From contig NW_003314286.1 of NCBI RefSeq assembly GCF_000143415.4, positions 697,766 through 761,765 on the forward strand: DNA of 64,000 bases, read 5' to 3'. Source of the stretch: Selaginella moellendorffii (lineage: Eukaryota; Plantae; Lycopodiophyta). The notes under the pieces were generated by a model, which was given only the letters and a program-made list of their open reading frames with translations, did not search any database and was not told the DNA's origin. Numbering within the stretch: the first letter of the stretch is position 1; every line of letters begins with the position of its first letter. A program made the position numbers and the translations under genes. Of this stretch, positions 1,791 through 43,012 are shown one piece after another.

Positions 1791-1827
1791 TGCAATGGTC
1801 ACAAAGATTAAAATACACATTTAAAAT

Positions 1828-4800
1828 GCTCTTTGCCCAGCCTGCCGGAAGGTGTGCCCTTGTTGCGGCCGAGTTTTTCATGATTCTTCTCCACGCCGTC
1901 CTTTCTAAATTCTCTGTTTAATCTATTCTTAGATTAAGAGATAGAATGTCTTCTGCTAACGCAGCAGGAAATTCTTGGGACTCTGGGGGCTGGGAGAAAC
2001 TTCTCCAAAAGTTCACGGGACAGAATTTCTCCACTTGGAAAACAAAAGTACAGCTTATCCTTTTGGCCAAGGACTGCTGGCCTATAATGGATGGAACGAC
2101 TCAACATCCGGCTGCTGCGGATGTAACCCAACGGCTCGACTGGGACTCCAAGAATCGAAAAGCGCTCTCTGTCATCGGGTTAGGTCTTGGGGATGAATCC
2201 TTGATCTTACCAAAACAGCCCACCAGAACTGGACATCCCTTACACAAATCTTCGCTGCCAAAGCTGCCAATGCTAAGGTGGTGCTAACACAAAGGTTCTT
2301 CACGATGAGAATGCAACCTGATGACACTATGGCCACTTACATTGGAAAGTTTAAAGCGATGGTCACCGAGCTGAAGGACGCGGAAGCGGCAATCACCATT
2401 GATCAAGCTAAGGCATTCCTTCTGAGCTCTGTCTCCCCTGATCTCCAACCTTTCGCATTGATGCTCTCGGCTGTGCCTGGAAAGGACTTGGACTCGCTCT
2501 ACTCGGACCTGATCGAGGAAGAACGCAAGCAGAACGAGTGGAGACAAAAGCGCCCTCTCAGGCTGCTCGGGTGGAGCAGGCCTTGTTCATGGGAAAGCAA
2601 TCGGGTGGGAAGAAACGAGATGGCCCTGTTCGAGGACAAAAGAGCCCTTCTCCCAGCCCTGGATTTGCAACAGATAAAAAACGCAAGGGCCCATGTAATT
2701 ACTGCGGCAGAGCTGGCCACGTGGAGCGTGAATGCCGGATCAAGAAAGCCGCAGAGAAAGCTTGCACTGAAAGAAGCTCTTCTTCACGCCAACCTGACAC
2801 GATGTTGATGATGACGCTCACTGCATCTTCATCCACTGTGTCCAAAGCTGAAGTGCTCTGGATGGATTCTGGAGCCTCGATGCACCTCACACCATTGAAG
2901 AGAGCTTTTCACAAGTACTGGCCATTGGAGCAGGAGAAGCAAGTCTTTGTAGGAGACAAACGCCCCTTAACAGTGGAAGGACAAGGAACGGTCATCATAA
3001 AGTTGGAGAGTGGAGCTGAGAAGCTCGTGAACTAGGTCTACTATGTACCAGAAGCAGGACAGACAGTGTTCTCAGTTGGTGTAGCAGCAGATCAAGGCTT
3101 CTCAACACTCTTCAACGCAGACGGATGCACATCCTTGACGAGACTGGCCATCCAGTAGCTTTTGGTAGACGAGCTGAGACTCTCTACAAGCTCAATGTTC
3201 AGTTGATCCTCTCAACTCACGAGCAGGGGCATTTGCTTGCAATTTGCCCCAGCTCTTGGATTGCCAGCTCTGGCACGCTTGGCTAGGGCATGCCAATTCT
3301 CACGACATCCAACTATTTGTTAGCCACAAGCTTGCTGATGACTTTACCCTCACCGGTGCCGGCCAACTAGGAGTACGTGAGACGTGCCAACAGGGGAAGC
3401 AGCCAAGACTACCCTTTCCACGCAGAAGTCCAGAAGATGGCGCCTCAGGATTTCTTCAGCTGGTACACACGGATGTGTGCCATGTGCCAGAAGCAACTCT
3501 CAGTCACAAGCGGTACTTCGTTTCGTTCATTGCACGCTATGCGGTGGCTGTTCTCATGGCACACAAGGGAGAGGTCTACCATCACTTCCAGGTCTACAAA
3601 AGCTGGGCACAAAATGCCACTGGCTGTACCATCCAGACACTACGCTCAGATGGCGGCGGTGAGTATAGGAGCAATGAGTTTCTGGCATTTCTTGCTCAGG
3701 CTGGAATCCACCACGAGTACACCGCAGCCCACACCTCGCAGCAGAATGGGGTCAGGAGACACCGCATCGCTCATGGCGTCTTGCAGCATGCTCTAGGCGC
3801 TGCTACCACTGATGGTGACCATGAACCAGTAAGTGTGGATCCATCCTCTAGTGGGTGTTGATCTTTTCGGGATGCGTGACCGGCTACAGATCTCTGACCA
3901 AAGTTTCTCCAGCTTGAAGGAGGAGCAGGTTTGGTGTCGGACATCGAGGAGGACAGGCAGCTTCTATGGATTCACCGAGCGCCTGAACAGGACACTTATG
4001 GACTGTGTACGCTGCCTTCTCCAGCACGCTGGCATGCCCAAGGTGTTTTGGGGAGAGGCACTCAACACCTCCTGCCAGATCGCCTCCTTCGGGCGCTCCT
4101 TCAGCAACTCCTCCTGGCTCTGCATCGGCTGGATTGTCTGGCGCTGGGTGGAGATGTGGAACGTCGTCCAAAATCTCAGAAAGATCCCCCAGAGATGGTG
4201 AAGAAACAGGAGGGAGTCTCAGGGTATCTCGATAAAGATGAGCTTCATCAAACACCACATCTCGGCTCACCACCAGTTTCCTGCGCTGCCAGTTATAGAG
4301 TCGATAGGCTTTTACCTGGGTGTGATAGCCCATGAAGATGCATTTCTCGCTCTTGGGATCCAGCTTCCGCCGCTGAACATCGGGGATGTGGGCGTAGGCT
4401 ATGCAACCAAACACCCTCAAGTGACCTAATTTGGGGCGCTTCCCTGTCCATACTTGAAATGGCACCTGTCCTGTGGAACGTGTTGGCAGCCGGTTCCGGA
4501 GATACATTGCTGCCCCAGGCGGCTCTACACGGACCAGAAGCTGAGCACTGGCAGGCAGCTATGCAGGAGGAGTATGATTCTCTCCAGAAAAACAACACTT
4601 GGTCGCTGGTTGAACTTCCAGCTCGCAGAAAGCTCGTCTCATCCAAGTGGTTGTTTAAGAAAAAGTACAACGCTGATGGAAGCATTGAGCGCTACAAGGC
4701 GAGATTTGTGGCACGCGGATTTTCTCAAGTTCATGGGCTGGACTACTCGGAGACTTACAGCCCTGTGGTGAAACTCACAACCATTCATATGCTACTAATC

Positions 4801-5230
4801 TTAGCTGCAGAATTGGATCTCGAGCTCCATCAACGGGCATGGTCAAGCTATTGTGTGACAACCAGTCTGCAATAGCTTTGACCAAGAACTCCAGGTTCCA
4901 CTCTCGTACTAAACACATTGAGCTGCGCTTCCATTTTATACGAGAGCAGATCCAGAGAGGAATGATCGAGCTGGAGTTCTGCCCGACAAACTCCATGCTA
5001 GCGGACGTGCTAACAAAACCACTTCCTCGTGTTAAACATGAAGTCTTCACGAAGGCTCTTGGGCTGACTTTAGACGTTGGCCTTGAGGAGTGTGGGAGTG
5101 AACAAGACCACGTCAGCACACAGCCACGTGAGCGATCCAGACGCCGCCACGGATCGTCACGATAAACCCATACATTTAACCATGTATCAACCGTCATAAT
5201 AATAACACAACACCGTTTCATAATACAACA
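1828..5230 (+). mobile_element. Ty1/Copia LTR retrotransposon, copy 1 (5'-truncated, rearranged, non-functional)
   Basis: gag (FTGQNFSTWK), zinc knuckle CNYCGRAGHVEREC, protease WMDSGAS, integrase LRSDGGGEY, RT start, RNase H end (CDNQSAI, HSRTKHI). Frameshifts are present. 3' LTR at 5091-5230. Confidence 0.95.
5091..5230 (+). repeat. Copia 3' LTR (140 bp, TG...CA)
   Basis: Matches the LTRs at 27380-27519 and 31250-31389; followed by GCGTG. Confidence 0.95.
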
Positions 5231-5596: not shown

Positions 5597-6259
5597 TTAG
5601 TGTAGTGTTATATCCAGAACTGGAGTGCCAGAGTGTCCCATAGACCCCTCAAACTTCCGTCCATTAGTAACGCGAGAGACAAAGTTGCTATCACCCTTAA
5701 TCGCAGAATTTGTGTAATAGAGTTCGTTGAACAAGCTGCTTGAGGGGGAAACTCTCCCATTTCGCAATTCAAAGTTCCACCAGTTGGAATATAAGTTGTA
5801 GTCAAACGGGACACTCCACATGATTGCGGCAGTTCGATTTTGGGCTGAAAGATAATATGTGATAACCCCAGCAGTGCCTCTTGCCACAGGACCAGTTGTC
5901 TTGCGAGCTCCAAAGCCGAGTGTGAATTTATCAGGAATAGCACCAGGGAGTCCATTGTCAGCTGTTCCAGAAAAGAAATACACACCTATAGCTGTGAGCT
6001 GATGGCCAGTATTGTTGGCAAACGAAATTACAATCTTGCGTTCTACTGAACCCAGCGCATTCAGGATGCTGTTGATAGCCGCAGCTCCAAGCTTCAGTCC
6101 TGCCACCACGACTGCAGTTACAGCCATTACACCTTTTTCTTCATTAGCAATAGACTTCTCTTCTTCGTGAGTGACCACAGAGCTCTCTTCTGCAGCCATT
6201 TCGTCACTGGCTTGCTCTACATCCATCTCACCCTTTCCTTGATTACACCTCCCAGCCAT
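5597..6259 (-). CDS. Actinoporin-like pore-forming protein (bryoporin-like), intact and intronless
   Basis: 220-aa ORF with the actinoporin signature MWSVPFDYNLYSNWW, an amphipathic N-helix before RKIVI, GPVARGTAGVITY, and KGD at the RGD position. Confidence 0.93.
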   Translation of the reverse strand: MAGRCNQGKGEMDVEQASDEMAAEESSVVTHEEEKSIANEEKGVMAVTAVVVAGLKLGAAAINSILNALGSVERKIVISFANNTGHQLTAIGVYFFSGTADNGLPGAIPDKFTLGFGARKTTGPVARGTAGVITYYLSAQNRTAAIMWSVPFDYNLYSNWWNFELRNGRVSPSSSLFNELYYTNSAIKGDSNFVSRVTNGRKFEGSMGHSGTPVLDITLH

Positions 6260-6384
6260 ATCACGTTACACTAGGATCTATTCTTCCTTCACACACTTCT
6301 GCACACACGTATAGAGGGAGGGAAGTAAGCAAATACTGACTTCCTCTATAAATGATCCAGATGGCTACAAAACGATGACATGTA

Positions 6385-8460: not shown

Positions 8461-8749
8461 AGTAGGATTGAGAGAGAGGTGTGGTTTCCCTTGCAGGAAT
8501 TAATCTTTCTTAGATCTTGTGTCTCCGTCCTTTATTTTTCTTGTATAAAATCCTTTTTGTAGCATATTTTATTTTATTTTTTTTAGGCCAATTAGAAAAG
8601 AGTCAATTACTTAATGAAAGAGCTTTTATTTTATCCCCTAAGGTTCTATAGATCCACGGTGGTAATATATTTAAATCTCATTTTATGATCATATATGATA
8701 TAAAGAGGTCAATTTAGCAAGCTTCAATATAACATGATAGAAAGCTTAT

Positions 8750-8773
8750 AAGCTTTATTTCGTTAAAGTGGGA
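8750..8773 (+). repeat. Left terminal inverted repeat (24 bp)
   Basis: Reverse complement of 22589-22612 with one mismatch; preceded by TTAT. Confidence 0.88.
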
Positions 8774-9191
8774 ATTGTCATTATCCCACTTGTAAAATAA
8801 GGTTTCCAAACCTTTATATAGTATATAAATATAACAAAATTCAACTGCATTGAGGCACATGCCATTTTATTTTAAACAAGGAAATGTTTACTCAATCACT
8901 TCTCCTCCCCTTGCCACTGCTTCACCTCTCTCTTCTCCTTGTCATCATCGTCCAATTTCTTTCCATCCTTTTAATATTGACTCAATTGCTCCGAGTCTAG
9001 GTGGAGCCCAAGTCCCCATTCAATCTTTACTTTCCCCTTATTAATAAAACAACTTCGTAGACTTCCAATAACATACTGTAACACTTCTAGTATAATGCAA
9101 ATCCTCTCAAAGAATTGTCTTTTAATATTAATACAATGGCATGGAACCCCATGCCATAATAAGTTACATTTTAAAATAAATACATGCCATC

Positions 9192-10076
9192 TTAGACTGT
9201 TATTTTTTGCCTCCAACGCCTATACAATAATCTTGGAATTTCATCACTCTCCACACTATCAGGATTTAAACCCAATAGTAATGCCATCTCTTCTCTAATA
9301 CGTCCACACTCATGTTCAGTGGTTGAAGAACCCATCCAGTTGAGCAGATTATGGAGATGCGGATAGTGCTTGGCTAGACAATATATATGCCATAAATGAT
9401 GACTGGTGTCTGTCCGATCAAATAGCTTCTGATATACCGTTCCATCTGCCATTTGGTTGATTTCTGCAGCCACCTCTTGGACTGGCCGGTTCTCTATCAC
9501 CATCGCTCCAAGCTGTTTTGCAAGGTCCCCCAGAACATACGGTTTCTTCTCCCTAGTTTCCATACTGCAAGAGATGGGGTGCACTGCATATGTGTGCATG
9601 TTCACTGCAGTTTTAATTGGCGAGTCATCGATGATGAGGATTTCACTTGACCTAGCAGTCCGGTTCATCACTACAGCCTCTGGCTTGATGAAGATGGGCT
9701 TGCTACCCCTCACATGGACCATAGTCAAGCAATCCTCCTGCGTTAGGAGAAAGTCAAATGGTAATATTACTCGCGTCTGATCGTGCATCATCTGTAGCAA
9801 CGTTAATGCATTGTGGCGCATCATGGATGTCCAAACTCCCAATTGCAAATTGAACCCAGCCCTCTGTTTTAAGTGTCGCATGGTCATTATTAGATCCCGC
9901 AGTTTCTCCCGTGTGATTAATGTGAATCTGTCTCTTTTGACCAACTTGCGACCGCAGGCTTTGGAGGGTGCAGTGACATTCGAGGACGAGCCATGCTCAT
10001 GGGAGAAAAGGACACCGTTCAGATCAAAAACGATACAGTACCTTCGCCGTGACTCTGAAATGAAATGCGTCAGCAT
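9192..10076 (-). CDS. FCP1/SCP (NIF)-like HAD phosphatase domain
   Basis: HAD motifs IVFDLNGVL, GVWTSM, FIKP and IIDDSPIK. It connects to the upstream ORF 10070-10711 across a frameshift in a T run near 10077-10082. Confidence 0.8.
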   Translation of the reverse strand: MLTHFISESRRRYCIVFDLNGVLFSHEHGSSSNVTAPSKACGRKLVKRDRFTLITREKLRDLIMTMRHLKQRAGFNLQLGVWTSMMRHNALTLLQMMHDQTRVILPFDFLLTQEDCLTMVHVRGSKPIFIKPEAVVMNRTARSSEILIIDDSPIKTAVNMHTYAVHPISCSMETREKKPYVLGDLAKQLGAMVIENRPVQEVAAEINQMADGTVYQKLFDRTDTSHHLWHIYCLAKHYPHLHNLLNWMGSSTTEHECGRIREEMALLLGLNPDSVESDEIPRLLYRRWRQKITV

Positions 10077-13000
10077 AAAAAATGGTACAAGTCAATTTTA
10101 CCATCTACAATATTAGCGAATGGTGCTCCTGATGGTCGTTCAGAGGGTTTTGGTCGAGGAAACGTGAAGGGCGAAAATACTCTCCTCTGCAATGTGGGGT
10201 CAATCGCATCCGATGGCGTGTGGGCACATGCCATTTCAGCTGTAGACTCTGGTACAACTGGCTCAACAGTGGCATGGGGTGGTTCCGATGGCGTGTGATC
10301 ACACGCCATTTCAGCTGGTGCCTCCGTTGGCAAAGTGGACATGACCGAACAGGCAGCAGGGGCAGTGTAGGGAGGTTCCAACGGCGCATAGTCAGACAAT
10401 TGGGCACACGTTGAGTCCGTTGGAAATGAGGATACGACTGGCTCGGCGGCTGGGGCGGCCTCATGCGGGTCCAATGGCGCTTGGTCACCGTCAGTTAGAT
10501 ACGTGGACAAGATTGACTCAGTGGTATGGGCAGCATCAAGTGGAGCGTGGTCAGCTTGCTTGGCGTTGATATGGATAGTAGCCTCCACCAGCTCTGATGA
10601 CTCTTGCAGGCAAGTAGAGTTCACTGGCGGATCCATATGCATGTCCAAATATCTCCCTTCGATTGAGATGGTATCCTCCCTACTAGCTACTAAAAACAAA
10701 CTCATTAGCACATTGAATCGACTATACTGTATTTACTATCAACTGCTATTGAGGAACTAGGACCGATATCACTTGGGCGCACTGCTGATTCTGAAGGATT
10801 GGACATACGTTTCGACCCTTGCTTGGCACTATCCTTCCTCGACACTAAAGGCTAGAGTTTGTATCTTAATTCAACTGAATAATCTCTACTTACCATTTGC
10901 TTTGCAACCTACATGGACAATGTTAGAAATGGTAAAAGGTTAGGAATGGATGTACTATTATTTACCTGATGGTTTGTCTTGTATGACCTTCCTCCGCTGC
11001 TCTTTGGCCACCTCAGGCTGGCCATCGTCGTCATCATCGTCGTCGTCGTTATTGTGATCGTCACCATTGTGAGGACCATCCAAGTCCTCTTCGTCCTCCT
11101 CTTCTTCGTCCTCCTCTTCTTTGTCCTCTTCTTCGTCCTTCTGCTCTTCCTGCTCATTATCTTTCTCTGGCTCCTCATCCCCCTCCTGCATTTCTTCCAT
11201 AGGCTGCTCAGGCTGGATGACTTGTTCTTCCAGGACCATCTTGGGAAAATCATCTGGCCGAGTCTCCATCTCAAAATACAAGACATCCATAGCCTGTTTT
11301 AGTGCGTGACCTAGGACCGTATCCTCACCCGACTGTCTTAACATGGTTTCTGCACGTTCTTGCACCCTTCGAAGACGACGAGATGAGAAAAACGTGGCCT
11401 TGACTTGAAAAGCATCCCTTATCCATTGTACCTCTCCATTGAGATTGGGGAAGGGGAGTCCGCCATAGGAATCTGAGTCAGGAGGTGGTGACCGCGAGGC
11501 ATTACCTATCATCTTTTTGTTGCCCTTCTTCCTTTTCGAATCAAACGCCTCTGATCCCGACGACTGTCCAACGTGCTTTCGCTTTTTATGACCACTGTCA
11601 GTTTGAGCTTGGCTGGTGCTTGGCTGTTTTGCCTTTGAAGAAGTGTCTCCTGCAAGGAATGGCATGAGACCACACGCCATTGCAAATATAATTTGTACCT
11701 CCTTTTTTCCTATTGCTTGTCTGTTTGTCCTTCTTCGACGCGCCACCAGTGCGCTTTTCAGTCCTCGTGTCTGAATATTCACAACGATCTATAATCAAAA
11801 TGGCGTGAGGCCTCACGTGACCTTACCTTGTGCAGGTTGTGAGCTCGGCCCAACATGGGTATCTTCAATAGTAGCTGTTAACGCCGTTTCAGCATCTGGG
11901 GGTGGCCACGCTTCTGTATACAGAGCTTGTGAGATAACATTTAAACTTAAAGTGCGTACTCACCAGGTTTGCAGAGAAGATACTGTTTTTCTTTGGCAAC
12001 TGTAATTATATGCTTCATTGAAGTCACCTCTTCAATGGAGTTTGTCACCGCAACACACGGGACACCCTTGAGTAGTGCGGCTCGAAAGAATAGTCCGCCG
12101 CAGTTGTACTCGACAACGCATTTGCCCTTGGAGTCGGAAGCAGGTGCTATTGCGTTGAAGACCCAGCTAAACATTTCCCATGCTGCACTTGGAGCTTTCT
12201 CTGGATTCGAAAGCTCCATAGTCGTCTTCAGTTCCTCAGGCACGGGTAAATTGACCTCCCTCAAATCAATTCGATCGGCCTTGTCGAACAAAGCTGGGAA
12301 GTCACTCCAGTCTCACTCTGCTGCAGGACCAATAACAAGGGCGAGTGTGAAGATGCGGACATTCGTCGGTATCTTCTTCTTAGCCATTATCCCATGGATC
12401 TCCTGCATCTCCTTGCCTTTCAACCGAGCCTTCACCTTGTTCAAGGCGTTCCAGAACTTGTGATAGGATTCGGAGTCGTAGATCATATAGTGGACTGAAG
12501 ATTCCACCTCCGCAAGTCCCACCATTAAGTCAATGATGGAGCTGACTTCGTCTGCATGAGTGATCTCCTCGTTTGTGAAGTCCATCACACAAAAGATGTT
12601 CTTGACCTGCTCATCTCCGCGGGAAACGATGCTCCTCCACCTTTGATCCTCATCCAAATTCACGTATACCCGGTAAGGTTCTCGATAGGCCTCTGCTGCG
12701 GGGTCGAGCTGTTTCTGAAGCCGGCGGTCGACATCCCTCTTAATGAAATTTGGATACTGATCCAACTTCTCAGCTTTACTTTTCGTGGCATCCCGCAGCA
12801 GATCGATGAACTTGGGGGCCCCCTTCACGTAATCGTCGATGTCTTCATTTGACAACTCTAGCTCTTCCATCATCTCTTGCGTGGTGTCGATGCTCACCCT
12901 CTCCACGGCCACTTGCTCGAAGATCCAATCCTTCAATAGCGCACGAGCTCTCAGAGTCGTGCACAAGTCCTCGTATGTCACAATATGGCCGGGAGTCATT

Positions 13001-14753
13001 TTGGTCTTGTTGAAGACTACCTCACCACGTAGAAGAGCATTAGCCACTGTCAGAAGGTCGTTGTCGTCTAGAGACCGCGAGAAACGCAAGGCGTTGAGCT
13101 TCAAATCATTGGGCTTCAGGCCGTCCTCCACACCCATTGAGTTTAGCAACTCCCCGTCATGGTACCTCCTCAGCACATCTACCCATTTGTCAAAAACAAC
13201 TTTTGTCGCGAGTAGAATGTTATGGATGCTGAGTGTGTCATTGACCCCCAGTGTTTTTGAGAGAAGACTCGAAAATTCCTGCAATGGAAATGGCGTGAGG
13301 CCACATGCTATGCCACATGCAACGAGGCTTACCTGCCAGGCGCTAGTTGCTAGTGCACGTCCTTGTCCTGGTTTTTGTGGCTTCTTCAGTTGAACCTAGA
13401 GCTTCCGTGTTCGTGCCAATGTCTCGTGCAGACCCGATTTGTAGCACATTTCTTGCTTGACATTTTGCGCGTGGGAGATGGATATGATAGATCGGAGGGG
13501 CGAGTTGCCTTTTATCAGGCAGACAACTCTTGTCTTGAAGACTTTCTTCACCTCCTCGCCCACCATAATATCCACAACTATCTCTTGCATCGCCAAGCTA
13601 GAATGCTGCCCGGAGACGGCATAGAACCGGATGTTCTGATCGTCCAACACCTTCCTATTGATCAAGTCTGGAAACCTCGTCTCGCCCTTCATTGTTCGGT
13701 AGTAGGGGATCACGTCTGCGATGTCAGGTGTTACTGGACTTGCCAGCATCTTCTGCTTCAGTTTCTCCACCCACTCATCAGATACTAGCCTGTGGTTGTA
13801 TTTGCTTTGGATGTCGATACGGCTCACGTCGATTGTATATACTTTGTTGGAATAGTAACAAGTACTATTATCTGCGACGATTTTTGCTGCTTCTTCTTGC
13901 TCTTTCTGCTCTTTGCGGCTCTTCTTTTTGGTGGGTGTAGTGTTCGAACCCGAGGCAATGGCATCACCGAGTAGCTTCTTTTTTGGAGCAGGAGAGTCGG
14001 ACGTCAGCTTGAGCTTGACCACCCTTTTCTGCTTCGGGGAAGTTTCCAGATCGACCCCCTTCCCCTTTGCTTCGCGAACTGGAGGCACTCTCAACGGCTC
14101 AATGTTGGAATATAGTTTTTGAACATCGCCGTAGGTGAGGTCCGTGGATTCCATGTGATCTTCATAAACCCGCAGCGTCTTTGAAATTGTGGGCCTCCTG
14201 AACAACCTCTCCCTAGCTCCCTCTAGGAATTCCTCATAGCCGCTGCCCCCCTCCAGGAAGCCGCTAGGATGTGCAAGGTGGATCTTGAAGGCGAACGCTG
14301 TCTCTACCATAAGTGCCAGTCCATATTCTTGCATGGAACTACATGGAGTGTCTGTCACTTGGATGAGGATCCCCATGCATTCTTTTCTCCCACCATCTGT
14401 GTTGTACAGCCTCAGATCCTCGCCTTCCATCCTGAAAGTCCAATTGGTGAGCTCCTCCCCCTTCTCTGCATCCACATTGACAGTGGCTGGAAGAAGAACG
14501 CAATTCCTCGCCTGTTCAGAAATGCACAACAATTAGAGCTGACAGATGAAAAGCTAGCAGCTGGAAATAACGTGAGGCCACACGCCATTCACCACTGCAT
14601 CAGATGTCTTGAGGCTGCATCCTAAGATGGCGTGAGGCTACACGCCATCTGTAACCGGACTGCACTCGAGAGCCCAATCGGTGCATGCCAATGTTGCTAC
14701 TGAATGGCATGTGGCCTCATGCCATTTTCTACTTGGCCTAAAAGACTTACCAT
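9192..14753 (-). pseudogene. Transposon accessory gene: ParB/DGQHR-like domain, helical region, degenerate amino-MTase-like segment, acidic disordered region and FCP1-like HAD phosphatase (multi-exon, disrupted)
   Basis: ATG at 14753, then GT-AG introns 14512-14750, 13279-13332, 11914-11963, 11771-11826 and 11650-11698 join the ORFs in frame. Premature stops at 13396-13398 and 12313-12315. The link to the 9.2-10.7 kb ORFs through small exons near 10.7-10.97 kb is plausible but not fully resolved. Confidence 0.7.
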
Positions 14754-17700
14754 TTGAAGCCGAATGGAGGCGTGACAATCGAGGCCGGACTCACTGGCGA
14801 ATGTGCACTGTGTGTGCAGCTGATCGTAGCAGCAAGGCTACTCTGCCACTTAACAGTTAGAGAGTGGCGCTGAAATCTCCCGGGACGCCAAGTGGGCTAC
14901 GTGTGGGTGGCGGAGTGGGCGGCGGAGTTGGCGGCGAAGTTACAAACTGGGTGTGTCTTGAAGTGGACGCCGATGCACACGAGCGTGATGCGAGCGCGAG
15001 TGTGATGCAAGCGCGAGTGGACGCCGATGCACACGAGAAACTTGTAGAGAAGGTAGATGAGCGCGAATGTGAGCATGATCGCGAGTGGGAGCACGATGCG
15101 AGCGCGAGTGTGATGCGAGCGCGAGCGCAAGTGTACGAACGCGAGTACGAAGCAAAATGCAAAACCTAACCTCACACGCGCGAAATGTCACAACGGTTGG
15201 TAATCTCGCCACGTCATCATTCCTCGGACTTGGGCGCCACCATTAATTTCTGGATTGCCGCGCGCATGCAAGCACGCAAAATCCAAAAGAAATCTGCAAC
15301 GTCATCATTCCTCGGACTGCATGCACGCGAAATCCAAAAGAAAGATCATGATTGGGATATCATTTAATACCCTCGCTATATTTATACCATGCATGATTGG
15401 ATATTCCAAAGCATCTTGTATTTCCAAAAATGGCAGATGTTCACCTAAATAAAGAAATTCTATCTGTTTCTATTTTTCTCTCAAATCAATATTACAGCGT
15501 GTGGGCTCATGCAATTTTGAACCAAAGAAACCCAAAAAACGTTGGACCCAAAATATTTTGAAAAAACCCAAAAAACCCTAAACATTTTAAACCCAAAAAT
15601 CCAGGCGTCCTGTGGCGTTATTCCTTGAATGGCGTGTGGGCGCATGCCATTTTCAGGGCCAAATGCTGAATGGAGAAAAATTCCCTTTCAGTGCAAATGC
15701 TGCAAGAGGTAGATGCCGAGCACAAAGGACTGTAACTACCTCACATGACACAGATAAACTTTTCTCTATTTGGCAAAGATAAACTTTATAGCGTGTGGGC
15801 TCATGCAATTTTGAACCCAAAAAATGCACCAAAAAATTCTCGGCATCATCTGGTGTTATCTCTTGAATGGCATGGGGCCGCATGCCATTTTCAGGGTCAC
15901 ATAGGAGTATATTCCTAGGATATTCTGACACGCGCGAGATTTTTTTGAGTTTTCTGGAGATCCAACCGTTAGATCGCAACTAGATTTTACAGAATGGTAT
16001 ACAATGTCTTTCTTGATGACCCTGCAAAGAAGCATCTCGATCGGACACCACATGAGACCACACGAGCCTTACAATGTTTCAGGGGCATTTGCCATAGATC
16101 CAACCGTTATTTTGCTCCAAGATTTTACAGTTTGGTGTGCATTGACCTTTCCATCGACACTGCAAAGGGACATCACAATCAGATGTGGGATCACAAGAAA
16201 TTAACTTCACTAACTCTGGTTTCACCAAGATCTATGTAAGGAGTTATGAAATGAAAGGACCCTCTCTATTGAAATGTGTTTATGGTCCTAGGGGCATTGT
16301 GACATATCAAAGGATTTTGCATCAAGTTCTGTATTTGCATGTTTATCAAGCTACTGAATTGCTAAACCCTAAACCCTAAACCCTAAACATGTGGCAAATG
16401 CTGCGTGAAGAAAGATGCCCTTTCTGGGCAAATGCTGTAAGAGGCAGATGCCGAGCAGATGTATCTCAGGCTAGCGAAGGGGACAAACGAAAGCTAGCTA
16501 TAAATATGACGGGATGCAAATAGATTACTAGGCTGGTCCTGCGAAAATCAAAAACCATAATTGAAAACATTGAAAATACAAAAAGAAAGGTTTATAATAT
16601 TTTTGAATTTTAAGCAACCAAAGGAATGTAAGTAGGGCATGTGTTTGTAAGTTTAAAAATGCCTCAACCACTTAAATTCCCAAGTAAATAAAGCTATTTC
16701 TATTTTTGGTACAGGTAAACTTTATAGCGTGTGGGCTCATGCAATTTTGAACCCAAAAATGCACAAAAAAATGCTCGACTAACATTATTCTTTGAATGGC
16801 GTGTGGCCTTATATTGCCATAAATGGACGTACACACACAGCATAATTATTCCTTTACACGGCGAATAATCTTGGCGCGGATCGCTGACATGGCATGGCAA
16901 AGTTCAAATCACTGACATGGCACAACTGGATCGAGGCAAGGACATGATGTGACAAAGTTCAACCTCCGACAGCAAAGTCTAGAAGCTACTCAGTTTGAAA
17001 TTTGTTAGAGGAGTCATAAGATCTAGTTTGTCAGAGGATTTGATGTGACGTTCAAGCGTGTGTTATTTTTGAATTCTCGAACTCATTCCTAGGTCTATCA
17101 TTTTTGTGCGCCGTGTTCTTGGTTCCACTGAGTGCAGTGAGCGCTGCTTGTGTAAGCGGCGTTGTGAGCTGTGGTTTATGCGTCTACGAGCGGTTGCGGC
17201 ATTGCGAGCGCCATTGCGAGCAGCAGTTTATGCGAGTGGCAGTTTGTGCGAGCGGCGCTACGAGCAGTTGCAGTGTTGCGAGCGGCGCTACAAGTAGTTG
17301 TAGTGTTGCGAGCGGCACTGTCTTTGGTGTGGCTACCGCTTCCTCTTGATATTCGGCACTTGTGCTTCCTGGTATGTTCACCATGGAATGGCTTAGGACC
17401 ACATTTAGAAATGGCATGAGGCCACATGCCATCTTGGGCCCTTGCAATTTCATGGCTAGCGTATTGTCATGTATGTTTTTACTTGCCTGCAGCTATGTGT
17501 ATATCAAGATGGCATGAGGCCTCATGCCATCTTTGGCCCCTGCTAGCCTATTGCCATATTCCTTTTGAACTGTATATATTTTTGTATGGGTGACTAGTCA
17601 CGCACACAAAAATATATATAGTTGCAGCAAGGCAAAAGGAATATAGCAACAGGCTAGCAGGGGCCAAAGATAGCGTGAGGCCTCATGCCATTAGTGGTAC

Positions 17701-17879
17701 CACTAATGGCATGAGGGCTCATGCCAATTTTGTGAATGCGAAATTTCACGTGGGTGTCAATAGCATGTTTGAATAATGGCATGTGGCCTCATGCTATTGA
17801 GGTTGTTTGGTATGTTATGATTTAGGCCATTCTCCAATCATTTTTTGTATGGTCTTAACTCCTTTTCTGCACTTTCAGA

Positions 17880-20800
17880 ATGACCTTCAGGGTTGGGGAA
17901 AAGGTTTACATTTTGAATGGTGGGAAGAGAGTTGCAAAAGGGACCCTTGTGTCTATGGATCGGAACTTTGTTATACACTGTCAAAGGCTTGGGGAAGGCA
18001 ATGCTGCTGTATCAGTAGAGACTGTCTTCGATGGGAATGTGGTCGCTATTGAACGAGGAGAGATGGTCGTCGGGGTAAATGTTGTTGTTGCCTTGAAAAA
18101 TCTTCAGAAGAAAGCAGATGTTGGGGATAGCGCAAGTGCGACACATGCAGATGTTGGGGATAGCGCAAGTGCGACGCATGTTCCCTCCGTGGATCTTAAG
18201 AACCGTGTTACATGGATTCAGGCGAAGGTGTTTCTAAACAACCCCGAGGGGGAGGTGGTAGCTGAGGGCTTAGCCACAGTTGTCGATCCAAGAGATGCGG
18301 TTGCTAATCAAGAATTGGGCTAGGATGATATTGGAGTTGCGATTTTAGAGGTTGTTGACACAGAAGAAAACAGTCAGACTATTGGAAGCATTGTGCGGTG
18401 GAAATTGAGGCACTTAGTGTTTGAGAATGTGAAGGATTCACAATCAAACACCATTATAACTGATGACAGAACATCTCTTCATGGGAAAAGAAAGTACACC
18501 TTCCTAAAGCGCAGCCAAAGGGATCTGAGCAACAAACCGAAAAGGCAGAAAATGGCGATGGAGGTTCGAATGGTCTCGACAGTTGCTTGTTGCAAGAGGA
18601 GGTGCTGTCAACATGTTGATTGGGATGCTATTGAAGAGGAGAGAGCAAGATACAAGACATTGTCCTGGAAGGCAGCTCGCAATTTTGTGTATGAGGCATT
18701 ACGGTCATCTGTTGATGCTTCAGAACATCAGGTGGGGGGCATGGTCTTCCAGAGGGGTTTGGTCTGCATGAAGGCATGGAGAATCATTTATGGAGTCCCT
18801 CGAACCACATTCTACAGAATCAAAACTGAGTTCGAGGAACAAAGGGTTCAACAGGCAGTCCATGGGAACGACGGTACGCACAAAACCAGGGGTCATGTTG
18901 TATATGGAGAGGCAATCTTCAAGAGGTTTGTCGAGACATGTAGCGAGCAACAACCACATAAAACCCTCCTCTTGGAAGATGGAACACGAGACACCCAACG
19001 AGTTCTCCCTTCCATGTATACCAAGGGGGCCATATTGGAATATGTGAATCGGGAACTCCAAAGTAATGGCTACAGGAAGCTGAGCCAATCTAGATTTAGT
19101 AGATTGTGGAGCAACAGGTTCAGGGATGTGAGTATAGGAAAGTACTCCAGCTTTTCAAAGTGTGACGAGTGCACTGCTATCAAAATGGCTTTGTCGAAGA
19201 ATTCTTGCAGCGCTCAAGAGCGAGAGACGTTGGTTAGAAGGCGACTCGACCACAACATCGAGCAGAGAAGCTGCAGGACTGCATATTATCATAACAGGAT
19301 TCTCTCCATGGAGAGACCTGACTCTTACCTCTGCATCATCCACAACAAAATGGACCAGAAAAAGATGTGCTTACCTCGACTCAATCCTGCCCCCAAGGCA
19401 ATCTCTTCATCTATGCAGTTGCCTGTGTCTCTGTTTGGCATAATCGCTCATGGGTATGGTGCCCAGAACTATGGGAACTTCTTTGTACCTCTATGGGGTG
19501 GCGGGGGTGCAAACATGATGATTGCGTCCCTAGCAAAACACTTAAGGTCTCTGCAAAGTGCGCAGACTGAGCTGAACGGCCAACCCTTGCATAAGGCCCT
19601 TGTCGATCGAACCCCATATAGGGTTCAGCTGGAGGAGGAGCAAAGGCTTGCAGTATCGCGTGGGGCCCCATGCCATCCCAGTGAATATGTTGGCCGTCAG
19701 ATTGTAGGGTTATCACGTGAGGCCTCATGCCATTCCGACGAGGCTGGTCGCCCGGTGAATGCACAGCCTCATCCAAACGAAGCAGAATCTCAAGGAAGTT
19801 CTTGCGGCTGATGTGGCCTTCCACCCCATCTTCTGCTCCAAACAGACAATGCTGGCAGTGAGAACAAAAACATGTACGTCTTCGCGTACTTGGCGATGCT
19901 TGTTGCCAAAGGCATATTTGAAATGGTTACACTTGGCTTTCTCATGGTTGGGCACACTCATGAAGACGTCGATGCCATGTTCAGTCACCTGGCAAAGTCC
20001 CTCCGGCGATCCAATGTCCTCACCCTCCCACAACTCTACGATGAATTCCAAAATTGCATCAAAGGCACTGTTGAAGCTGCACTTCTGACAGAGGTTCCAG
20101 ACTTTAAGGGGTTTGTAAGAGGCTACATCAGGGACGGATCCGAAACGCTGATTGGCCACTCCAAGCCTCTTCAGTTTCATTTCAGCATGTGTGACGGTGC
20201 TCCAGTGATGAGGTACAAGATGAGAGAATGGGACACAGTGTGGCTGCCAGTGGACGGCATTGAACTCTTCAAGAGAGATCCCATAACTGGGGAACCTATG
20301 ATTCCTCAGGGTTCCCCACGGCCGATGCACCCGGATGGACTCAAAGACCAGGAAAGTATAGTGGCCGGGATTAGACAGCATATTGCCTTCTGCAAGAGGG
20401 GGTTGGTGTTTGGTGGAGAATCTTATTTTCAGAGGTGCAAGCCTTTGCTCGAATATTGGGAGAAGATTATATCTGCTATCCAAAATGGGCCGGTTGTATA
20501 TGAAGAATTGGAAGAGTCCTTTTGGCCAGAACCCAGAGCACCAGATAGTAGCGGAACAATGTCCTCTGGAAATGCAGTGACAGATAACGATGTTGAGGAT
20601 CACTATTGTGGGCCGAGGAACAAGAAGCCGGATTCAGCATTCAATCCAGTACAGGTCTGCAAAGGAATGGTCGTGCTTGTCAGACCCAGTAATAAAAAAC
20701 AAATGATATGGGTAGGGCGCTGCATCACTGATGCAGAGGAGAATGCAGAAACTAACTCCTTCAATGTAACTGTGGAGTGGTTCAAGCCAAGTTCCGGATA

Positions 20801-20981
20801 TACGAAGGATTGCCTAGAAAAGAGATGGGTGCTGAATCCAAGGGATCCCAGCATGAGCATATCGGTGGATAATGTTGTGCATGGTTGGATGCAGAAGCAG
20901 AGTGCCACCATCACCTTGCCAGACCATGCAAGAGATGTAGCAAGAGCATTCATAACCCGGGTTCAAGGTGAGATTCATTAA
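17880..20981 (+). pseudogene. DDE transposase (Sola-like / DUF7869-type), two in-frame stops
   Basis: ORFs 17880-18323, 18393-19811 and 19872-20981 share one frame. Motifs: two N-terminal VAxG..LG..V.V repeats (Tnp1/En/Spm-type domain), CCKRRCC, CMKAWRIIYGV, FSKCDEC, IIHNKMDQ, LLLQTDNAGSENKN and FLMVGHTHEDVDAMFS. A splice acceptor ends at 17878. Confidence 0.87.
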
Positions 20982-21694
20982 TATTCCTTTACTAAGTTTC
21001 TAATGTATTTTATTTCAAGGTGAACAATCCGAATCTGAATCAGAGGAGGCGTGATGGCATGTGGCCTTACGCCATTCCTAGGTGAGATGATACAAATAAC
21101 AAGTATAAATTCTTAGTTGTTCTAGCAAATCTTACTTAAAGTTTAAGGTGAACAAGCCGAATATGAATTCATTGGATTGTTATAACAAATTGCGAGGTGA
21201 TGGCATGAGGCGATACGCCATTTGAGAGTGGTAGCCATTCCTATATGAGGTGAGTGAAATATTTATTAGAAATACCTCATTCAATTGTGCACTTCTAAGT
21301 CTTGGTCCACTCAGTACTGTTTGCATGTTTTTATTTTAATTTTTTCTCTAAAATGTTATTTAGCATGTGGCTTCATGCCATTGCTCTCCACAATCATGCA
21401 TTGAATTTTTCTATCCTTGCATAATACTTCTCCATATATATAGCATGTGCGCACATGTGATATGGTTCATTAGGCCTGATATAGTGTGTGAGGTAAAACA
21501 AAGATGATGTGACATATGCATTTACCAATCACACGTGCATAAATCTAATAATATGGCGTGTGGCCCATATTAATGGCACATAAGCCCATATTGTGGGCTT
21601 ACGTGCTTTATGTACCATCATTCCCTTGCAGCGTGTGTGTTGGTTTCCTTTTATAACACAACGAACTCCATATTTTAGGGTGAAGAGCGTTCTC

Positions 21695-21952
21695 ATGGCA
21701 AGCACAAAATCTGTAAGTGAGGCAGAAAAGGAGACGGAGAAGGAGATAGGTGAAGATGTAGAATATATAAGTCTTCCAAACTCCCTGTACTATACTCCAG
21801 GTGATCATTTTTCTGAACAAACGGCAACATTAACAACTATCGAGAACACCCCAGTAACGTCAGAGACAATAATCCAAAGCAAAACAACTGACCCGGAGAA
21901 GGATGATAGTACCGCTGAGAGTACCAAAAAGGAGGTGTCCACTAGCACTTAG
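21695..21952 (+). CDS. Possible small acidic, Thr-rich ORF inside the transposon
   Basis: 85-aa ORF MASTKSVSEAEKETEKEIGEDVEY..., preceded by an acceptor-like TTTTAG and bracketed by palindrome copies. No recognisable domain. Confidence 0.3.
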   Translation: MASTKSVSEAEKETEKEIGEDVEYISLPNSLYYTPGDHFSEQTATLTTIENTPVTSETIIQSKTTDPEKDDSTAESTKKEVSTST

Positions 21953-22588
21953 GCTTATAATGGCGTGTGCCCTCATGCCATTTACTTGATCACCAAATAC
22001 CTTTTTCCCTTTGCACTAGTATATCTTAATACCGGTCTGAGAAATAGAATGGCATGTGTCCTCAGGCCTTTTACTAAATCACCTTTGAAAGAAATGCAAG
22101 CCTCTATGTCGTAAAAAAAAGGTACTAGAGAAATTCCTTAATAATATGAATGTTATTTAGTTTCATGAAAATACACTAAGGGTCAAATGAGTTAAATGAC
22201 TTCTCCAGACTAGCAATGCCTCTTGCTACACCTTCACAATTAGATTCGTTAGAAAAAGATAACATTGAATAATATCTAAATGTTCTCACCATTAAGTTAT
22301 ATGTCTAGCTAATAGGAATGACGTTCATCTTGGAAAGCTCACCACACGCTCAATGAACAAACAAATAGTGTGTGCGCGCATGCCATCGCTCTTCTTTAGC
22401 TTCAAATTCGGCTTGTTTACCTTGACAATGAGATTTATTATACAACCAGATGGACACAGTCTGGACATAAAGTCACCACGCTAGTCATCATGCCCCAGAT
22501 ATGTCTAGCCCCTGGACAAAAAACATATAATTTCACGTCATTTTCAAATACTTGAAAATTTGTACCTAGTCCCATTTTACTGAATAAA

Positions 22589-22612
22589 TCCCACTTTAAC
22601 GAAATAGAGCTT
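22589..22612 (-). repeat. Right terminal inverted repeat (24 bp)
   Basis: Pairs with 8750-8773; followed by TTAT. Confidence 0.88.
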
Positions 22613-23399
22613 TTATTAAGGTCTATTAAAATAGTTTTTTGATGCATGGTTTCTATGGTCTTAAGTAAGCAATACCAATAATGGTTGGATTTGGGCAATT
22701 TAAACTTTTCCCCAATGAAGCCATTTCCATTTTTGGATTGTTATTTACTGCTTCATCATCTCCCTCAACACTATTATTTTCTCAACTTTCTTTTAATTTT
22801 AAAATATTTTAAAAAGGAATCTCTAAGATTCCTTAAAGATTCTAGTGCCTTGATTAGGGTGTGTCAGATTTTTTGCCATGAGCTGGGATTGCCATGAGCT
22901 TGGGCATTGATGGCAGGGGAACTGACAGCAGTCATTGCTAAAGTAGGCTCCCTAGGGTTAGATCATGTTGGGGATTCGGTGGAGGAAGGAGGAGCAACTG
23001 ATTTTGGGGAAGGAGGAGTTGTAAGGTTTGATGAGAAGATAGTGCGGGTTTGGGGCAGTGGCATCCAGTGCAGAGGTGCTGCACGTGAAGTGAGGAGCAA
23101 TTGTGGTGGAGGAGCATCCGAGGTTGAAGGACAGGCACCAGGCCCAGTTGTCACTCAAGGAGGCAGGCTGCCTCGGGGTCAAGGCTGTGGAGATGCTGAG
23201 CTTGTAGATCTTGGCCTCAATCAAGATGAACCCGAAGCTAAAGCATGAGGAACTGTAGCACAAGGAGCTGGAGCCTCTCCCCCCATGGTTTCTAGAACTT
23301 GATTGTTCTCCAAATTCTCTTCTATGACAACCAACGAGGTAAAGCTTCATCCCGAGTTTAGCTCATAGTTTGTAGGAGAGTGGTTTCGGGTTTAAGGTG

Positions 23400-24312
23400 G
23401 CGAAGCAGGTAACTTGGAGCAAAAGCAATCACCAGGACAGCAGTACATGCAACTATGGTTTCATAACTTGGAGGAGCAGGACGACATTGCCATTGAACAG
23501 AAGGCAGAAGAAAGAGGAGGGTGATGACGACGAGGAAGGGGAGGTGAGTGTTCATATTGCAAAGAAAGTGAGGAAGAAACGCAAGAAAAATTGGGGGGAT
23601 GATGAGACGGCTTCCCTCATTGACTTCAAATGGGAAGATCACCTTGGAAAGATTGGGGCAGTGCGGGTAGCAAGGAGACGATGTTGACAATAACTGTTCG
23701 TTGGAAGAGAATTGTGAAAAAGATGTAGGTTGCTGGCATGCAGCAGGACTGGAAGGCTTGCCGGACTCACTGGAACAACCTTTGCAATGACTATAAGTGC
23801 ATTTGCGATCTCCAAAGGAAAATTGGGACCCTAATTACTTCAGCTTGAGCCACAAGGATGCAAAGTGGCTTATGTCAGTGAAGCTGAACTTGAAGGTGTT
23901 CCTAGTCAAGTACTTCAACATACTAGATGAATTCTTGGTGAAGAAGGCATCGAATTCTCCAACATTTTTTGCTGATTCAGATGCTCTAGAGGAGGAAGCT
24001 CACAAGGAGGATCCCACAGATGGTGTTGATCCTCCTGGAGATGCTACACAGGTGCCAGAGAGTTCAGGGAAGTGAAAGAACCTGAAAAAGGCCAAGAAAA
24101 GCATGAACACTTTGCTCGGTGAAGGGAATGCCCTCGCTGCTACTTAAAATGAGCAGAATTTAGTGTGGCAAAAAGAAAGCATTATTTGCATGAAGAAGAA
24201 TAGCCTGGCTGAGAAAGAGAAGGCTGCAATTGCAACAATTTTAGCTAGAGCCATCTCCAACCTTGCAAGCTCCATCTCCAACTTCTTGAATGGGGCTACA
24301 TCCAAGAGTTAG
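23400..24312 (+). mobile_element. PIF/Harbinger Myb/SANT (trihelix-like) ORF, decayed
   Basis: KKNWGDDETASLI..RWKRI..WKACRTHWNNLCNDYK with stops and frameshifts; adjacent to a Harbinger transposase. Confidence 0.75.
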
Positions 24313-24589
24313 CCGTCTTGTTTTCGGGATTTTAGGGGGATGTTAATTATTAATATTAAAATAAACTATGTTTAGGCTATGATATTCTAGATTTCTTCTA
24401 ACCATTTTTTTTCTTTTAGGATCTTGTTCTTCTACAAGTTTTGTTTCTCATCATGAAGGCTTTTTGATCCATTATCGATGACAAGACTTTAGTGGCACAA
24501 ATCCTTCTGGACAAGGAGGAGGACAAAGACAAGCTTCGTCAAACAGTCTTGTCCAAGCGACTTGACACCAATCTCTAGTGAGTGAAGCC

Positions 24590-25700
24590 GTAGTATATAA
24601 CAGCATGGAGCAAATTCTTCATAGAGTTGTATGACCTCGGTTGATGGAAGTGGAAGTTAAGGATGGAGAAGATGACATTTCTTTGGGCTTTGTGGCATTC
24701 TGGAGGCTGAAAGCTGCAAGCAAGATACAAAGTTTAGGAGAGCAGTGCTAATGGATGTTCATTTAGGGGTCACCTTGTACAAGTTCTTCAAGAACACTAA
24801 CTACTCAAACCTATCTAACAAGTTTGGGATTGGGGAAGCCATTGCACATGACATTGTGGTGCAAACAATTGCTGCAATTGTCAAGTGCCTTGGATACAAG
24901 ATTCAATTCCTAGAGACAGCAATGGAGGTTAGAGCTATGGTGGTAGAGTTTTAACAAATCACCAAAACCGTCTCCCTAATGTGGCTAGGGCAATTGACTA
25001 TACATATTTCAAGATTATCCGACCAATTGGCCCAGATGGTGAGGGCTACTTTGATCAAAAGCAATGGTACTTGGTGATCTTGTAGGGGGTTTGCGATGCT
25101 CAGAAAAGGTTCTTGAGTACCTATGTAGGTTGGTTAGGTAATTACTTTTAATTTTTTCCTTCTATGTTTATTTTTTTTCCCAAGGAGTGTTCATGACATG
25201 AGGGTTTTTTGGAACTCTAGGCTATGCCACAAGATCCAAGCAAGAGAATTACTAACAGTTCCTCGGGAGTTTGCTTTTGATGAGTGGATTGAGCCGTACT
25301 TGGTGGGCGACAAAAGTTACTAGCTGCAATAGCATTTGATGATCCCTCACTTAGGTAAGCTGATTGTTTTGTTTTTTTTTTTTTTCAATTATTCATTTGA
25401 AACAAGTTCCCGATTGACAGTGATTGAGGCGGAGTACAACCAACAACACTATCTAGCCTGGATTGTTATTGAACAACTATTTAGACTTTTGAAAATGAAA
25501 TTTAAATGCTTGGATCAAAAACAAAGGATCAAGCTGAAATATCTACCATACATCATCAAATGTTGTTGCATCTTGCACAACTTCTTGATTAATGTTGGTG
25601 AGACAAACATCAATGCCAAGATCAAGGCGTAAAAGAAATACATTCAAGCCTTGAAGGAAGTAGAGATTTTCAAATATTACAAGGATCTTGTCAAATGTGC
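24590..25700 (+). mobile_element. PIF/Harbinger (DDE_Tnp_4, HARBI1-like) transposase, decayed
   Basis: LPNVARAID, GVCDAQKRFL, SVHDMRVF, YLVGDKSY, IEQLFRLLKMKFKCL and CCILHNF, with many stops. Confidence 0.88.
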
Positions 25701-26067
25701 AAATGCAATGGTCACAAAAATTAAAATACACATTTTAAAATATTTTTATATAACTTGCAAATGCAAATAGCTCTATTCATTCATTCATATACTGTTTTAA
25801 GTGGCCCACACCCACTATATTGAAAATCTCACACATTGATTTTGAGTTTTCCATAGATGCCCGATTACAATACTCCCATGGCGAGATCTCACATAATCAG
25901 AAACCTTGACGTTGCTCGCCATGGGAGTTCATGTAAGACGATTGGACCTGACAAGGTTTTGCAAAACCACTACATTTCTTTCTTAAACTTCTTTTTGTTT
26001 CTTCAGGGTATTAGATCAAGTAGTGTCAATGGTTGCGAGGTCTCAACAACAGTGGCATGGATCTACC

Positions 26068-31389: not shown

Positions 31390-31755
31390 GCGTGCTCTCG
31401 AGCTCTCAAGTTTTCCCCTCTTCTTACTGAAGGTGGAGTTTGGTAGTCACTACCATCACAGCATACATTGCGAAAGCTGGCTCTTATGGCATCCAGGTTC
31501 CTTATCCTTTTCGTAATTCATTCAATGCCTTGCAGGACGTGGGTGCCTCACTCGTCAAGTCCGTCAATGGATGCTTCTACAACGTCGTTGGCTTCCCAAT
31601 CCACTGGTGAGTAGTCTCCACGCCTCCTCCCCTTGCGTAGATGTCTCATGAGCAAAATAAACTACCTAATAAAATATTATATATTATACTTAGTTAATAC
31701 AATATTTTTTAATTTTTTTTGTAGCTGATATTTTCCTCTTTCTCTTCAAAATATT

Positions 31756-40517: not shown

Positions 40518-40749
40518 AAAACTCTGGACAAAGCTCTACTGGAAAGTTTGGCGCAAGAGCAAAGTTTCCAACCGGGTTTATATGTGTTGTGTTTGCTAGA
40601 AACTAAATGAAAGAACCCTAGCTCTCGAGAAGAATGTGGCGCGTCCGCGAGGTCCAAAAAACGTTTCCCAGTGACAATGCTCAAAGGTATTTGCTCGCTA
40701 TCAATCCCACATTCTTGCCAGACTTTCTTTCCATGGCAGCTCGCCTGCA

Positions 40750-42654: not shown

Positions 42655-43012
42655 AGAGCTCATCACGGAATTGATACGCCTCCACGCCGAGCAATCGACC
42701 ACGGAGTTCTACAACCTGGAGCTCATTGTGTGGCTCAACGTCCTAGCGCAAGAAACAGCATCAACGGACAGACGAAGAAATCTGATGAGAAGGCTTCCAA
42801 AGCAGCAGCAGCAGCAACTAACGCAGTAGAATCAGCATCGACCAAGCCAAGCGGAGGACGTCAGGAATCAGCAAGAGCCAAGAGTTTGACGCGACGAAGC
42901 TCTCCCCGGCTAAGCAAGAGCAATAGCGCGGCTCCAAGGCACAGTCGAGCTCTCCCAGAAACGCCAAGCCTCGCCACTTGAGCGCCGCTCCTCCACTGCT
43001 GGACCTCGACAT
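42655..43012 (+). pseudogene. Degenerate duplicate of the last exons of the DUF668 gene
   Basis: Colinear with 39840-40465 but has many internal deletions. Confidence 0.8.

Follow-up and report, generated by a model that had tools for sequence, protein, structure and literature searches.

In the bacterial ParB/parS, Noc/NBS and KorB/OB systems, multiple dispersed palindromic sites lie on the same replicon. Here we describe a comparable arrangement in a decayed DNA transposon of 13,863 bp (positions 8750..22612) within a 64,000-nucleotide stretch of Selaginella moellendorffii DNA (contig NW_003314286.1, positions 697,766 to 761,765), which is referred to below as the window. This transposon carries 28 scattered copies of a 22-bp palindrome, and one of its genes, here termed the accessory gene, is predicted to encode a ParB/Srx-fold domain followed by a helical region, an order that resembles the N-terminal domain and subsequent helical region of the bacterial proteins. 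Unlike the bacterial systems, this is a eukaryotic transposon, its scanned open reading frames (ORFs) gave no Pfam match to a ParA ATPase partner, and the motif SGQHS replaces GxxR, which is the cytidine triphosphate-binding motif of ParB.

Three groups of eukaryotic transposons are also close to it, and what is said of them refers to the accessible parts of the respective publications. The first is Sola1-1_Ec32 of the brown alga Ectocarpus, likewise a giant Sola-type element with an opposite-strand gene for a ParB-like and N4C/N6A methyltransferase protein (PMC12477816), for which self-binding and self-modification have been proposed (PMC12477816). However, that element is a 21.5-kb Sola1 transposon and palindromic sites are not mentioned in the accessible part of its description (PMC12477816), whereas the present one resides in a land plant, has a DUF7869 transposase, lacks a recognisable catalytic motif in its methyltransferase-like part and has a NIF phosphatase following that part. 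The second group is formed by the Plavaka (EnSpm) elements of red algae, in which a ParB-like accessory protein, PAG3, is likewise encoded by an element that contains inverted repeats, while PAG2 carries a PF01555 methylase; self-recognition has been proposed for PAG3 (bioRxiv 10.1101/2025.02.11.637652). The Plavaka repeats are tandem arrays adjoining PAG3, and the ParB domain is fused to a 2-oxoglutarate (2OG) oxygenase (bioRxiv 10.1101/2025.02.11.637652). The present element, by contrast, belongs to another superfamily and has 28 single sites distributed over introns, promoter, untranslated regions (UTRs) and two coding linkers. Thirdly, the VANDAL elements of Arabidopsis have, along their full length, family-specific motifs that lie in introns and in intergenic and terminal non-coding DNA and are bound by the element-encoded accessory protein VANC; these motifs are words of 8-9 nt, which build up as tandem repeats in Mutator-like elements, and the accessible text nowhere uses the word 'palindrom' (PMC5735166). 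The present element is VANDAL-like in that 24 of its 28 sites are predicted to be non-coding and its relatives have different motifs, but it has a DUF7869 transposase, and no VANC-type Pfam domain was matched among its scanned ORFs. ParB-HTH methylase fusions, HTH being the helix-turn-helix, have moreover been reported in chlorophytes and chytrids (PMC4738411). A literature search that did not extend to subscription journals and bioRxiv supplements returned no published link between ParB, methyltransferase, transposon and Selaginella. As far as the accessible literature goes, ParB-methylase accessory genes have thus already been published for algal transposons, and the present element is a variation on these rather than something new in kind.

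The original prediction had placed about 28 copies of the palindrome, dispersed rather than in a simple tandem repeat, between 9136 and 22386, with no good copy in the other ~50 kb of the window, and all of this was borne out. With at most 4 mismatches to ATGGCRTGNGGCCNCAYGCCAT, 27 copies were found in the window, and a symmetrised position weight matrix located 28 palindromes at a threshold of at least 12 bits, which begin with the one at 9136 and end with that at 22365-22386; a 29th, weak copy lies at 8844. Within the 64-kb window, to which the judgement of restriction to the element applies, not one match of at least 8 bits lay outside 8750-22620. These counts are far above those in shuffled sequences: matches of at least 12 bits averaged 0.065 (maximum 2) over 200 third-order Markov shuffles of the element, and 25 copies with at most 3 mismatches were observed against 0 in 100 dinucleotide shuffles of the window. 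The sites occur along the whole element, not only subterminally, and are grouped in 11 loose clusters with gaps of up to 1.9 kb. Their flanks have a mean identity of 31% and sort the 28 palindromes into 22 flank families, four of them products of local duplication. No convincing helical phasing was found among 16 short spacings (R 0.34).

The 56 half-sites conform to the consensus ATGGCRTGWGG. Best kept are T7 (56 of 56), C5 (55), T2 and G8 (54 each) and A1 (53), followed by G4 and G10 (52 each), G11 (40) and G3 (39). The expectation that the outer arms are better conserved than the centre therefore holds roughly, but not in detail, as the pattern is position-specific and the outer-arm G3 is among the variable positions. 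Arm pairs with a 6-nt spacer number 29, compared to 13 with a spacer of 11, which mostly represent the same sites in a shifted register, and to no more than 4 at each of the remaining spacers between 0 and 20. Compensatory changes between the arms were not found: 236 symmetric pairs were counted, where permutation gives a mean of 234 ± 4.5. A fixed spacer and arms that match each other no better than random pairs fit a protein dimer and do not fit a hairpin. The dyad-symmetric site of constant length, read from the start as that of a dimeric protein, is therefore upheld, and selection for hairpins was rejected on account of the independent arms and the invariant spacer.

Another part of the original prediction, that the CGTG/CATG variation reflects CpG decay, was not sustained. 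The CpG of the half-site reads CA in 33 of 56 cases and TG in 1 of 56 (binomial p 4e-9), in a set that was picked by similarity to the consensus and in which a half-site with TG would still clear the threshold. Since neutral decay of a methylated CpG is expected to give TG and CA equally, it was rejected as the source of CATG. At 14567, 14627 and 14704, the variants with CATG or with mismatches represent the family majority in three of four public sequencing runs (X1, X3 and X20), as does the entire stretch 14540-14750 of the window copy, and these variants are therefore family-wide; run X2 departs at a few places in this stretch, with no substitution within the palindromes. Altogether, we infer that one strand accepts C or T, and hence 5-methylcytosine, at the CpG position of the half-site. 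Two of the X2 differences, at 14650 and 14661, are both in a CTG context: X2 has predominantly C, X1 and X3 from that sample have T, and the discrepancy may be an error of the sequencing platform at methylated CHG positions.

With respect to genes, the palindromes mostly avoid predicted coding DNA. Only 4 of the 28 lie in predicted coding DNA, which makes up 57% of the element (p 5e-6), and this number rises to 6 when all long ORFs are counted as coding (p 7e-5). The 4 coding palindromes are all located in low-complexity or length-variable linkers, and enrichment is seen in the promoter region and in introns. From left to right, one palindrome (9136..9157) lies downstream of the NIF ORF, two at 10213 and 10288 (10213..10309) in a predicted low-complexity coding exon, and two at 11659 and 11800 (11659..11821) in the predicted short introns 11650-11698 and 11771-11826. 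The next (13290..13311) is found in a 54-nt intron (13279-13332, GTAAG...TTGCAG) that coincides with a gap in homologues, P0063 lacking 16 of the 18 residues of that stretch and P0066 part of them. Three more at 14567, 14627 and 14704 (14567..14725) are placed in a predicted first intron (14512-14750). Between the two divergent genes lie those at 15494, 15629, 15788, 15867 and 16724 (15494..16745), which are partly local duplications, and those at 17411, 17509, 17670, 17706 and 17776 (17411..17797) are in a predicted 5'-UTR intron (17372-17878). The two at 19655 and 19712 (19655..19733) are in frame within a variable insertion of the transposase core; the residues they encode are the same in the sibling protein P0001, and the region is length-variable among homologues. 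The remaining seven, at 21054, 21200, 21360, 21440, 21960, 22049 and 22365 (21054..22386), are located 3' of the transposase gene and subterminally. Two of the palindromes in the 5'-UTR intron cap a 183-bp inverted duplication (17509-17691). Together with a second, 68-bp inverted duplication, it makes up a segment (17505-17735) that folds at -150 kcal/mol (z -16) and from which small RNAs directed against the element could arise. Other features of the same region are short tandem repeats rich in GC immediately upstream of both divergent genes (14981-15125 and 17215-17316) and 3.9 copies of the plant-telomere-like unit CTAAACC within the divergent promoter (16362-16388).

The boundaries of the transposon are given by a pair of 27-bp terminal inverted repeats (TIRs), the left one at 8750..8776 (+) and the right one at 22586..22612 (-), which are identical at 25 of 27 positions and are flanked by target-site duplications (TSDs) TTAT at 8746..8749 (+) and 22613..22616 (+). 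The TIRs do not contain the palindrome half-site, and the palindromes are therefore not copies of an end motif. One contig of public run X1 joins 8746 directly to 22615 and thus represents the empty site, and in run X4 other copies of the element stop matching at 8750. Contig depth inside the element is hundreds of times that of the last right-flank bin, a figure that is read here as 'highly repeated' and not as a copy number. The family appears to be very abundant in this land plant, and the element appears to be a Sola-like cut-and-paste DNA transposon. The window copy is decayed: both main genes carry two in-frame stops, and 198 of its 297 differences from other copies in X1 are T against C or A against G, as expected of a methylated, decaying copy. 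Six X1 contigs have an extra palindrome just before 11491 that is absent from the window copy, which suggests turnover of the sites.

The transposase gene (17880..20981, +; 1033 codons with the two stops) was recognised by Pfam as DUF7869 (PF25273, E 2.9e-41). Its product consists of weak N-terminal Transposase_23-like barrels, a Cys cluster, two HTH-like segments identified by eye, and a D-D-D core. In alignment A1, based on 32 homologues found, the motifs HDKMDQ, QxDN and GHTHEDxD are nearly invariant, and they probably contain the catalytic D-D-D residues. The window copy has N at the first of these positions, where P0001, which is 96% identical and reads through both stops, has D. Named homologues from the transposase and accessory searches together belong to Physcomitrium, Riccia, Selaginella and Calypogeia. 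From its motifs we take the DUF7869 transposase to be probably of the Sola3 type. Sola3 elements have a TTAA TSD and GAG...CTC ends, whereas the one insertion examined here, a decayed copy, has TTAT and AAG...CTT. The DDD-type transposase, the 4-bp TSD and the 27-bp TIRs nevertheless agree with what the accessible text reports for the Sola superfamily (DDD core, 4-bp TSD, TIRs of 11-1124 bp), and the size of the element is within the reported range (PMC10741241). The literature search mentioned above returned no published work naming DUF7869.

The main part of the accessory gene (11947..14754, -) contains its two in-frame stops and was assigned a predicted exon model with the aid of homologues, AlphaFold and structure matches. 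It encodes an N-terminal region and then the ParB/Srx-fold domain (about 13400-13870, -), the predicted helical region, and a methyltransferase-like C-terminal part (about 11965-12700, -) that was recognised through Atlas structure matches of homologue P0063. Further exons with acidic and Pro/Ala-rich low complexity (10105..11908, -) are predicted from ORFs and GT-AG signals, and to judge from the latter they probably link the main part to an ORF for a NIF/FCP1-like phosphatase of the haloacid dehalogenase (HAD) type (9192..10091, -; PF03031 E 1e-5; Atlas feature score of 0.95 to NIF clusters). This ORF is either the C-terminal domain of the accessory protein, a fusion predicted from the splice signals, or a third gene. 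Its nearest Atlas clusters are mostly from Nucleocytoviricota, which is not in itself evidence of transfer, and scans of viral contigs found no relative either for this ORF or for the ParB alignment.

Homologues of the accessory protein are few. It had no match in Pfam and NCBIfam, the hit to phrog_1033 having an E-value of just 0.27, and neither word-based homologue searches nor sequence searches of PDB, phage and NCBIfam collections gave a meaningful match. HMMER over 1.84 billion proteins returned 9 matches, of which 8 were kept, because P0069 (RTX repeats, a low-complexity match) was excluded before alignment; the named ones are from Selaginella and Calypogeia. A single-sequence AlphaFold prediction of the 634-residue accessory part, which includes the helical region, was unusable (predicted local distance difference test score, pLDDT, of 32). 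From a 12-sequence alignment, the best model of the ParB-fold domain reached a pLDDT of 68 (37-53 for the other four), and its top structure match was PadC (Z 10.2, root-mean-square deviation 3.0, 99 aligned residues), followed by KorB (Z 9.1) and the ParB of pNOB8 (Z 8.4); Noc was matched by Foldseek at E 3e-4. Eight of the ten structure matches of P0063 fell on clusters of N6_N4_Mtase (PF01555), three of the matches being to ParB_N-bearing clusters. The methyltransferase-like part itself had no Pfam match, and remnants of methyltransferase motifs are present in the homologues P0077 and P0082.

Related elements were surveyed in one metagenome scan, from which 80 of 100 loci with a related transposase were kept. 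The palindrome of the window is absent from these 80 loci, apart from chance matches with 5 mismatches in 3 of them. A de novo scan, however, detected at least 4 flank-independent copies of another palindrome in 6 of the 80 (L001, L007, L055, L056, L066 and L078), whereas the controls, five shuffles per locus and four stretches of the window, had a maximum of 3; L055 and L056 belong to a single family. The palindromes of L066 and L035, the former being a tandem array and the latter lying in a tandem repeat, were not counted as dispersed. Inspection added the palindrome GCTCAAAC-N4-GTTTGAGC of L002-L005, a 23-bp pair in L015 and, in the L017 family, a palindrome of 28-32 bp that lies ahead of the transposase within a degenerate ~73-bp array; these were chosen by eye, without a formal null. 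The 19 closest loci form 9 groups by DNA similarity, and repeated palindromes are present in 6 of the 9, each of the other three groups having at most 0.9 kb of upstream sequence. The palindromes of the related families are of unrelated sequence and measure 16-32 bp. As separate observations, L007 (558-4493) has six 19-bp palindromes with an asymmetric centre, all in one orientation and three of them inside the transposase frame, and the DUF7869 transposase is part of a long open frame with SET in L024 (7622-15571) and with SET, PHD and PhyH-type 2OG-oxygenase domains in L043 (1878-9890), which echoes the chromatin-modifying cargo of algal Plavaka elements.

What, then, binds the palindromes? 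Very likely it is a protein encoded by the element itself, and the accessory protein appears to be a better candidate than the transposase. We favour the ParB-fold protein because its family is known to bind inverted repeats, as stated in the accessible text of the Plavaka study (bioRxiv 10.1101/2025.02.11.637652), and because the TIRs lack the half-site. That the palindromes are family-specific docking sites for a dimer of the ParB-fold, methyltransferase-like accessory protein, serving self-recognition and anti-silencing, is a proposition to which we assign even chances. An element-encoded dimer would bind sites over the full length of the element, and transposition would be more efficient for copies that retain them. 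The accessory protein would thereby recognise the element's own copies and protect them against silencing. Through the R:Y pair in ATGGCRTG, which would take C, 5-methylcytosine or T on one strand, binding could tolerate CpG methylation. Short local duplications or point changes may create new sites, which would be retained by selection among transposing copies, mainly where there is no coding cost. The outcome might be anti-silencing or control of the divergent promoter; by analogy with known systems, compaction of the element could be a further downstream effect.

Several observations weigh against this interpretation. The model of the ParB-fold domain is of moderate quality, the same fold occurs in a serine kinase (Z 8.3) and in sulfiredoxin (Z 7.8), and all 12 aligned sequences have SGQHS at the ParB motif, without the arginine of GxxR. 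No part of the accessory protein could be recognised as a DNA-reading domain. The methyltransferase matches of P0063 had template modelling (TM) scores of 0.36-0.41 by query, with only one of the ten reaching the threshold for naming, and no DPPY-type catalytic motif was seen in the methyltransferase-like part, which may therefore be inactive. The predicted intron 14512-14750, with its three palindromes, is crossed unspliced by a contig of X20, a run guessed to be RNA that showed no splice joints. Private mutations are not significantly depleted within 25 bp of palindromes (2 of 39 against 5.8 expected, p 0.06, based on those 39 of about 300 variant places that had the best support). Homologues of the accessory protein were found in none of the 80 related loci, though with shallow profiles and on mostly short contigs; among these 80 are L017, with 8.5 kb upstream of the palindrome array, and L009, with 5.8 kb downstream. 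Apparently, palindromes can thus occur without the accessory gene. Lastly, the transposase, which all these elements have in common, has HTH-like segments of its own.

This last point leads to the strongest alternative, namely that the transposase itself, using either its tandem HTH-like segments or a spliced derivative, binds the sites in order to pair, organise or activate the element, in the way demonstrated for the AtMu1 transposase of Arabidopsis and for Spm TnpA. In addition to the palindromes in relatives without a detected accessory gene, this explanation draws on their frequent clustering just upstream of the transposase gene (L001, L002-L005 and L017) and on the finding that L002-L005 share one palindrome together with a similar second HTH-like helix, SQP(T/S)FSRL. 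However, relatedness alone could account for the helix match, and L010 has the same helix but no such motif in 0.9 kb upstream. According to the accessible text of a recent study, transposases can be sequence-specific activators, but TnpA and the AtMu1 transposase bind termini (bioRxiv 10.64898/2026.08.24.746577), whereas here the sites are found throughout the element and the half-site is absent from the TIRs. We therefore regard binding by the transposase as rather unlikely, but as the first alternative to consider.

Sites for a dimeric host transcription factor, gathered by the element for tissue expression, would be in line with the enrichment in the promoter region and introns and with the frequent presence of host factor sites in transposons (10.64898/2026.08.24.746577, accessible text). 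Nonetheless, no copies are present near host genes in 50 kb, and one conserved host factor would not explain the unrelated 16-32-bp palindromes of the relatives, so that we consider this explanation improbable. Hairpins or cruciforms in RNA or single-stranded DNA, or neutral by-products of local duplications, whether inverted or direct, are still less probable, for although 4 flank families stem from local duplications and 17505-17735 folds very stably, the arms show no compensatory variation, the motif is conserved in 22 independent flank contexts while the flanks are not, and the CpG outcome is asymmetric.

Returning to docking by the accessory protein, a bolder version can be formulated, which we consider a long shot, if slightly less so than the host factor. 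The element would then represent a land-plant nuclear parS-like system, in which a nucleotide-gated clamp of the ParB fold would load at the 28 palindromes regardless of CpG methylation, spread over the 14-kb element, and bring methyltransferase-like and CTD-phosphatase-like domains (CTD, C-terminal domain) to protect or activate copies, each family having its own protein-site pair. Tested analogues of an element-encoded binder are VANC, TnpA and the AtMu1 transposase (PMC5735166; bioRxiv 10.64898/2026.08.24.746577; accessible texts). For the algal ParB-methylase elements, no defined target site is named in the accessible parts of the published descriptions. Here, a single element offers a candidate protein together with a sharp 22-bp site whose tolerance can be read from its copies, and relatives offer several other sites. 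This makes the idea of self-recognition directly testable. If it is true, a protein fold that originated in bacteria would join VANC and TnpA in transposon anti-silencing, and orthogonal, methylation-tolerant protein-site pairs might follow.

The remainder of the window contains other repeats and genes. Two near-identical copia-type long terminal repeat (LTR) retroelements are located at about 1800-5230 and 27380-31390 (97-99% over matched blocks), and a third, more diverged copia piece is found near 56900-57150. An intact ORF of the actinoporin family (5597-6265, -; PF06369, E 1e-42) adjoins a copia element. To the right of the transposon, at about 22850-25900, lies a decayed Harbinger-like element with Myb/SANT-like and DDE_Tnp_4-like remnants that were recognised by eye; a Pfam scan of two ORFs in this region gave no match. 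Finally, tandem duplications of ~6 kb at 40600-56600 carry F-box/beta-propeller genes and a RAM2-like glycerol-3-phosphate acyltransferase (GPAT) gene.

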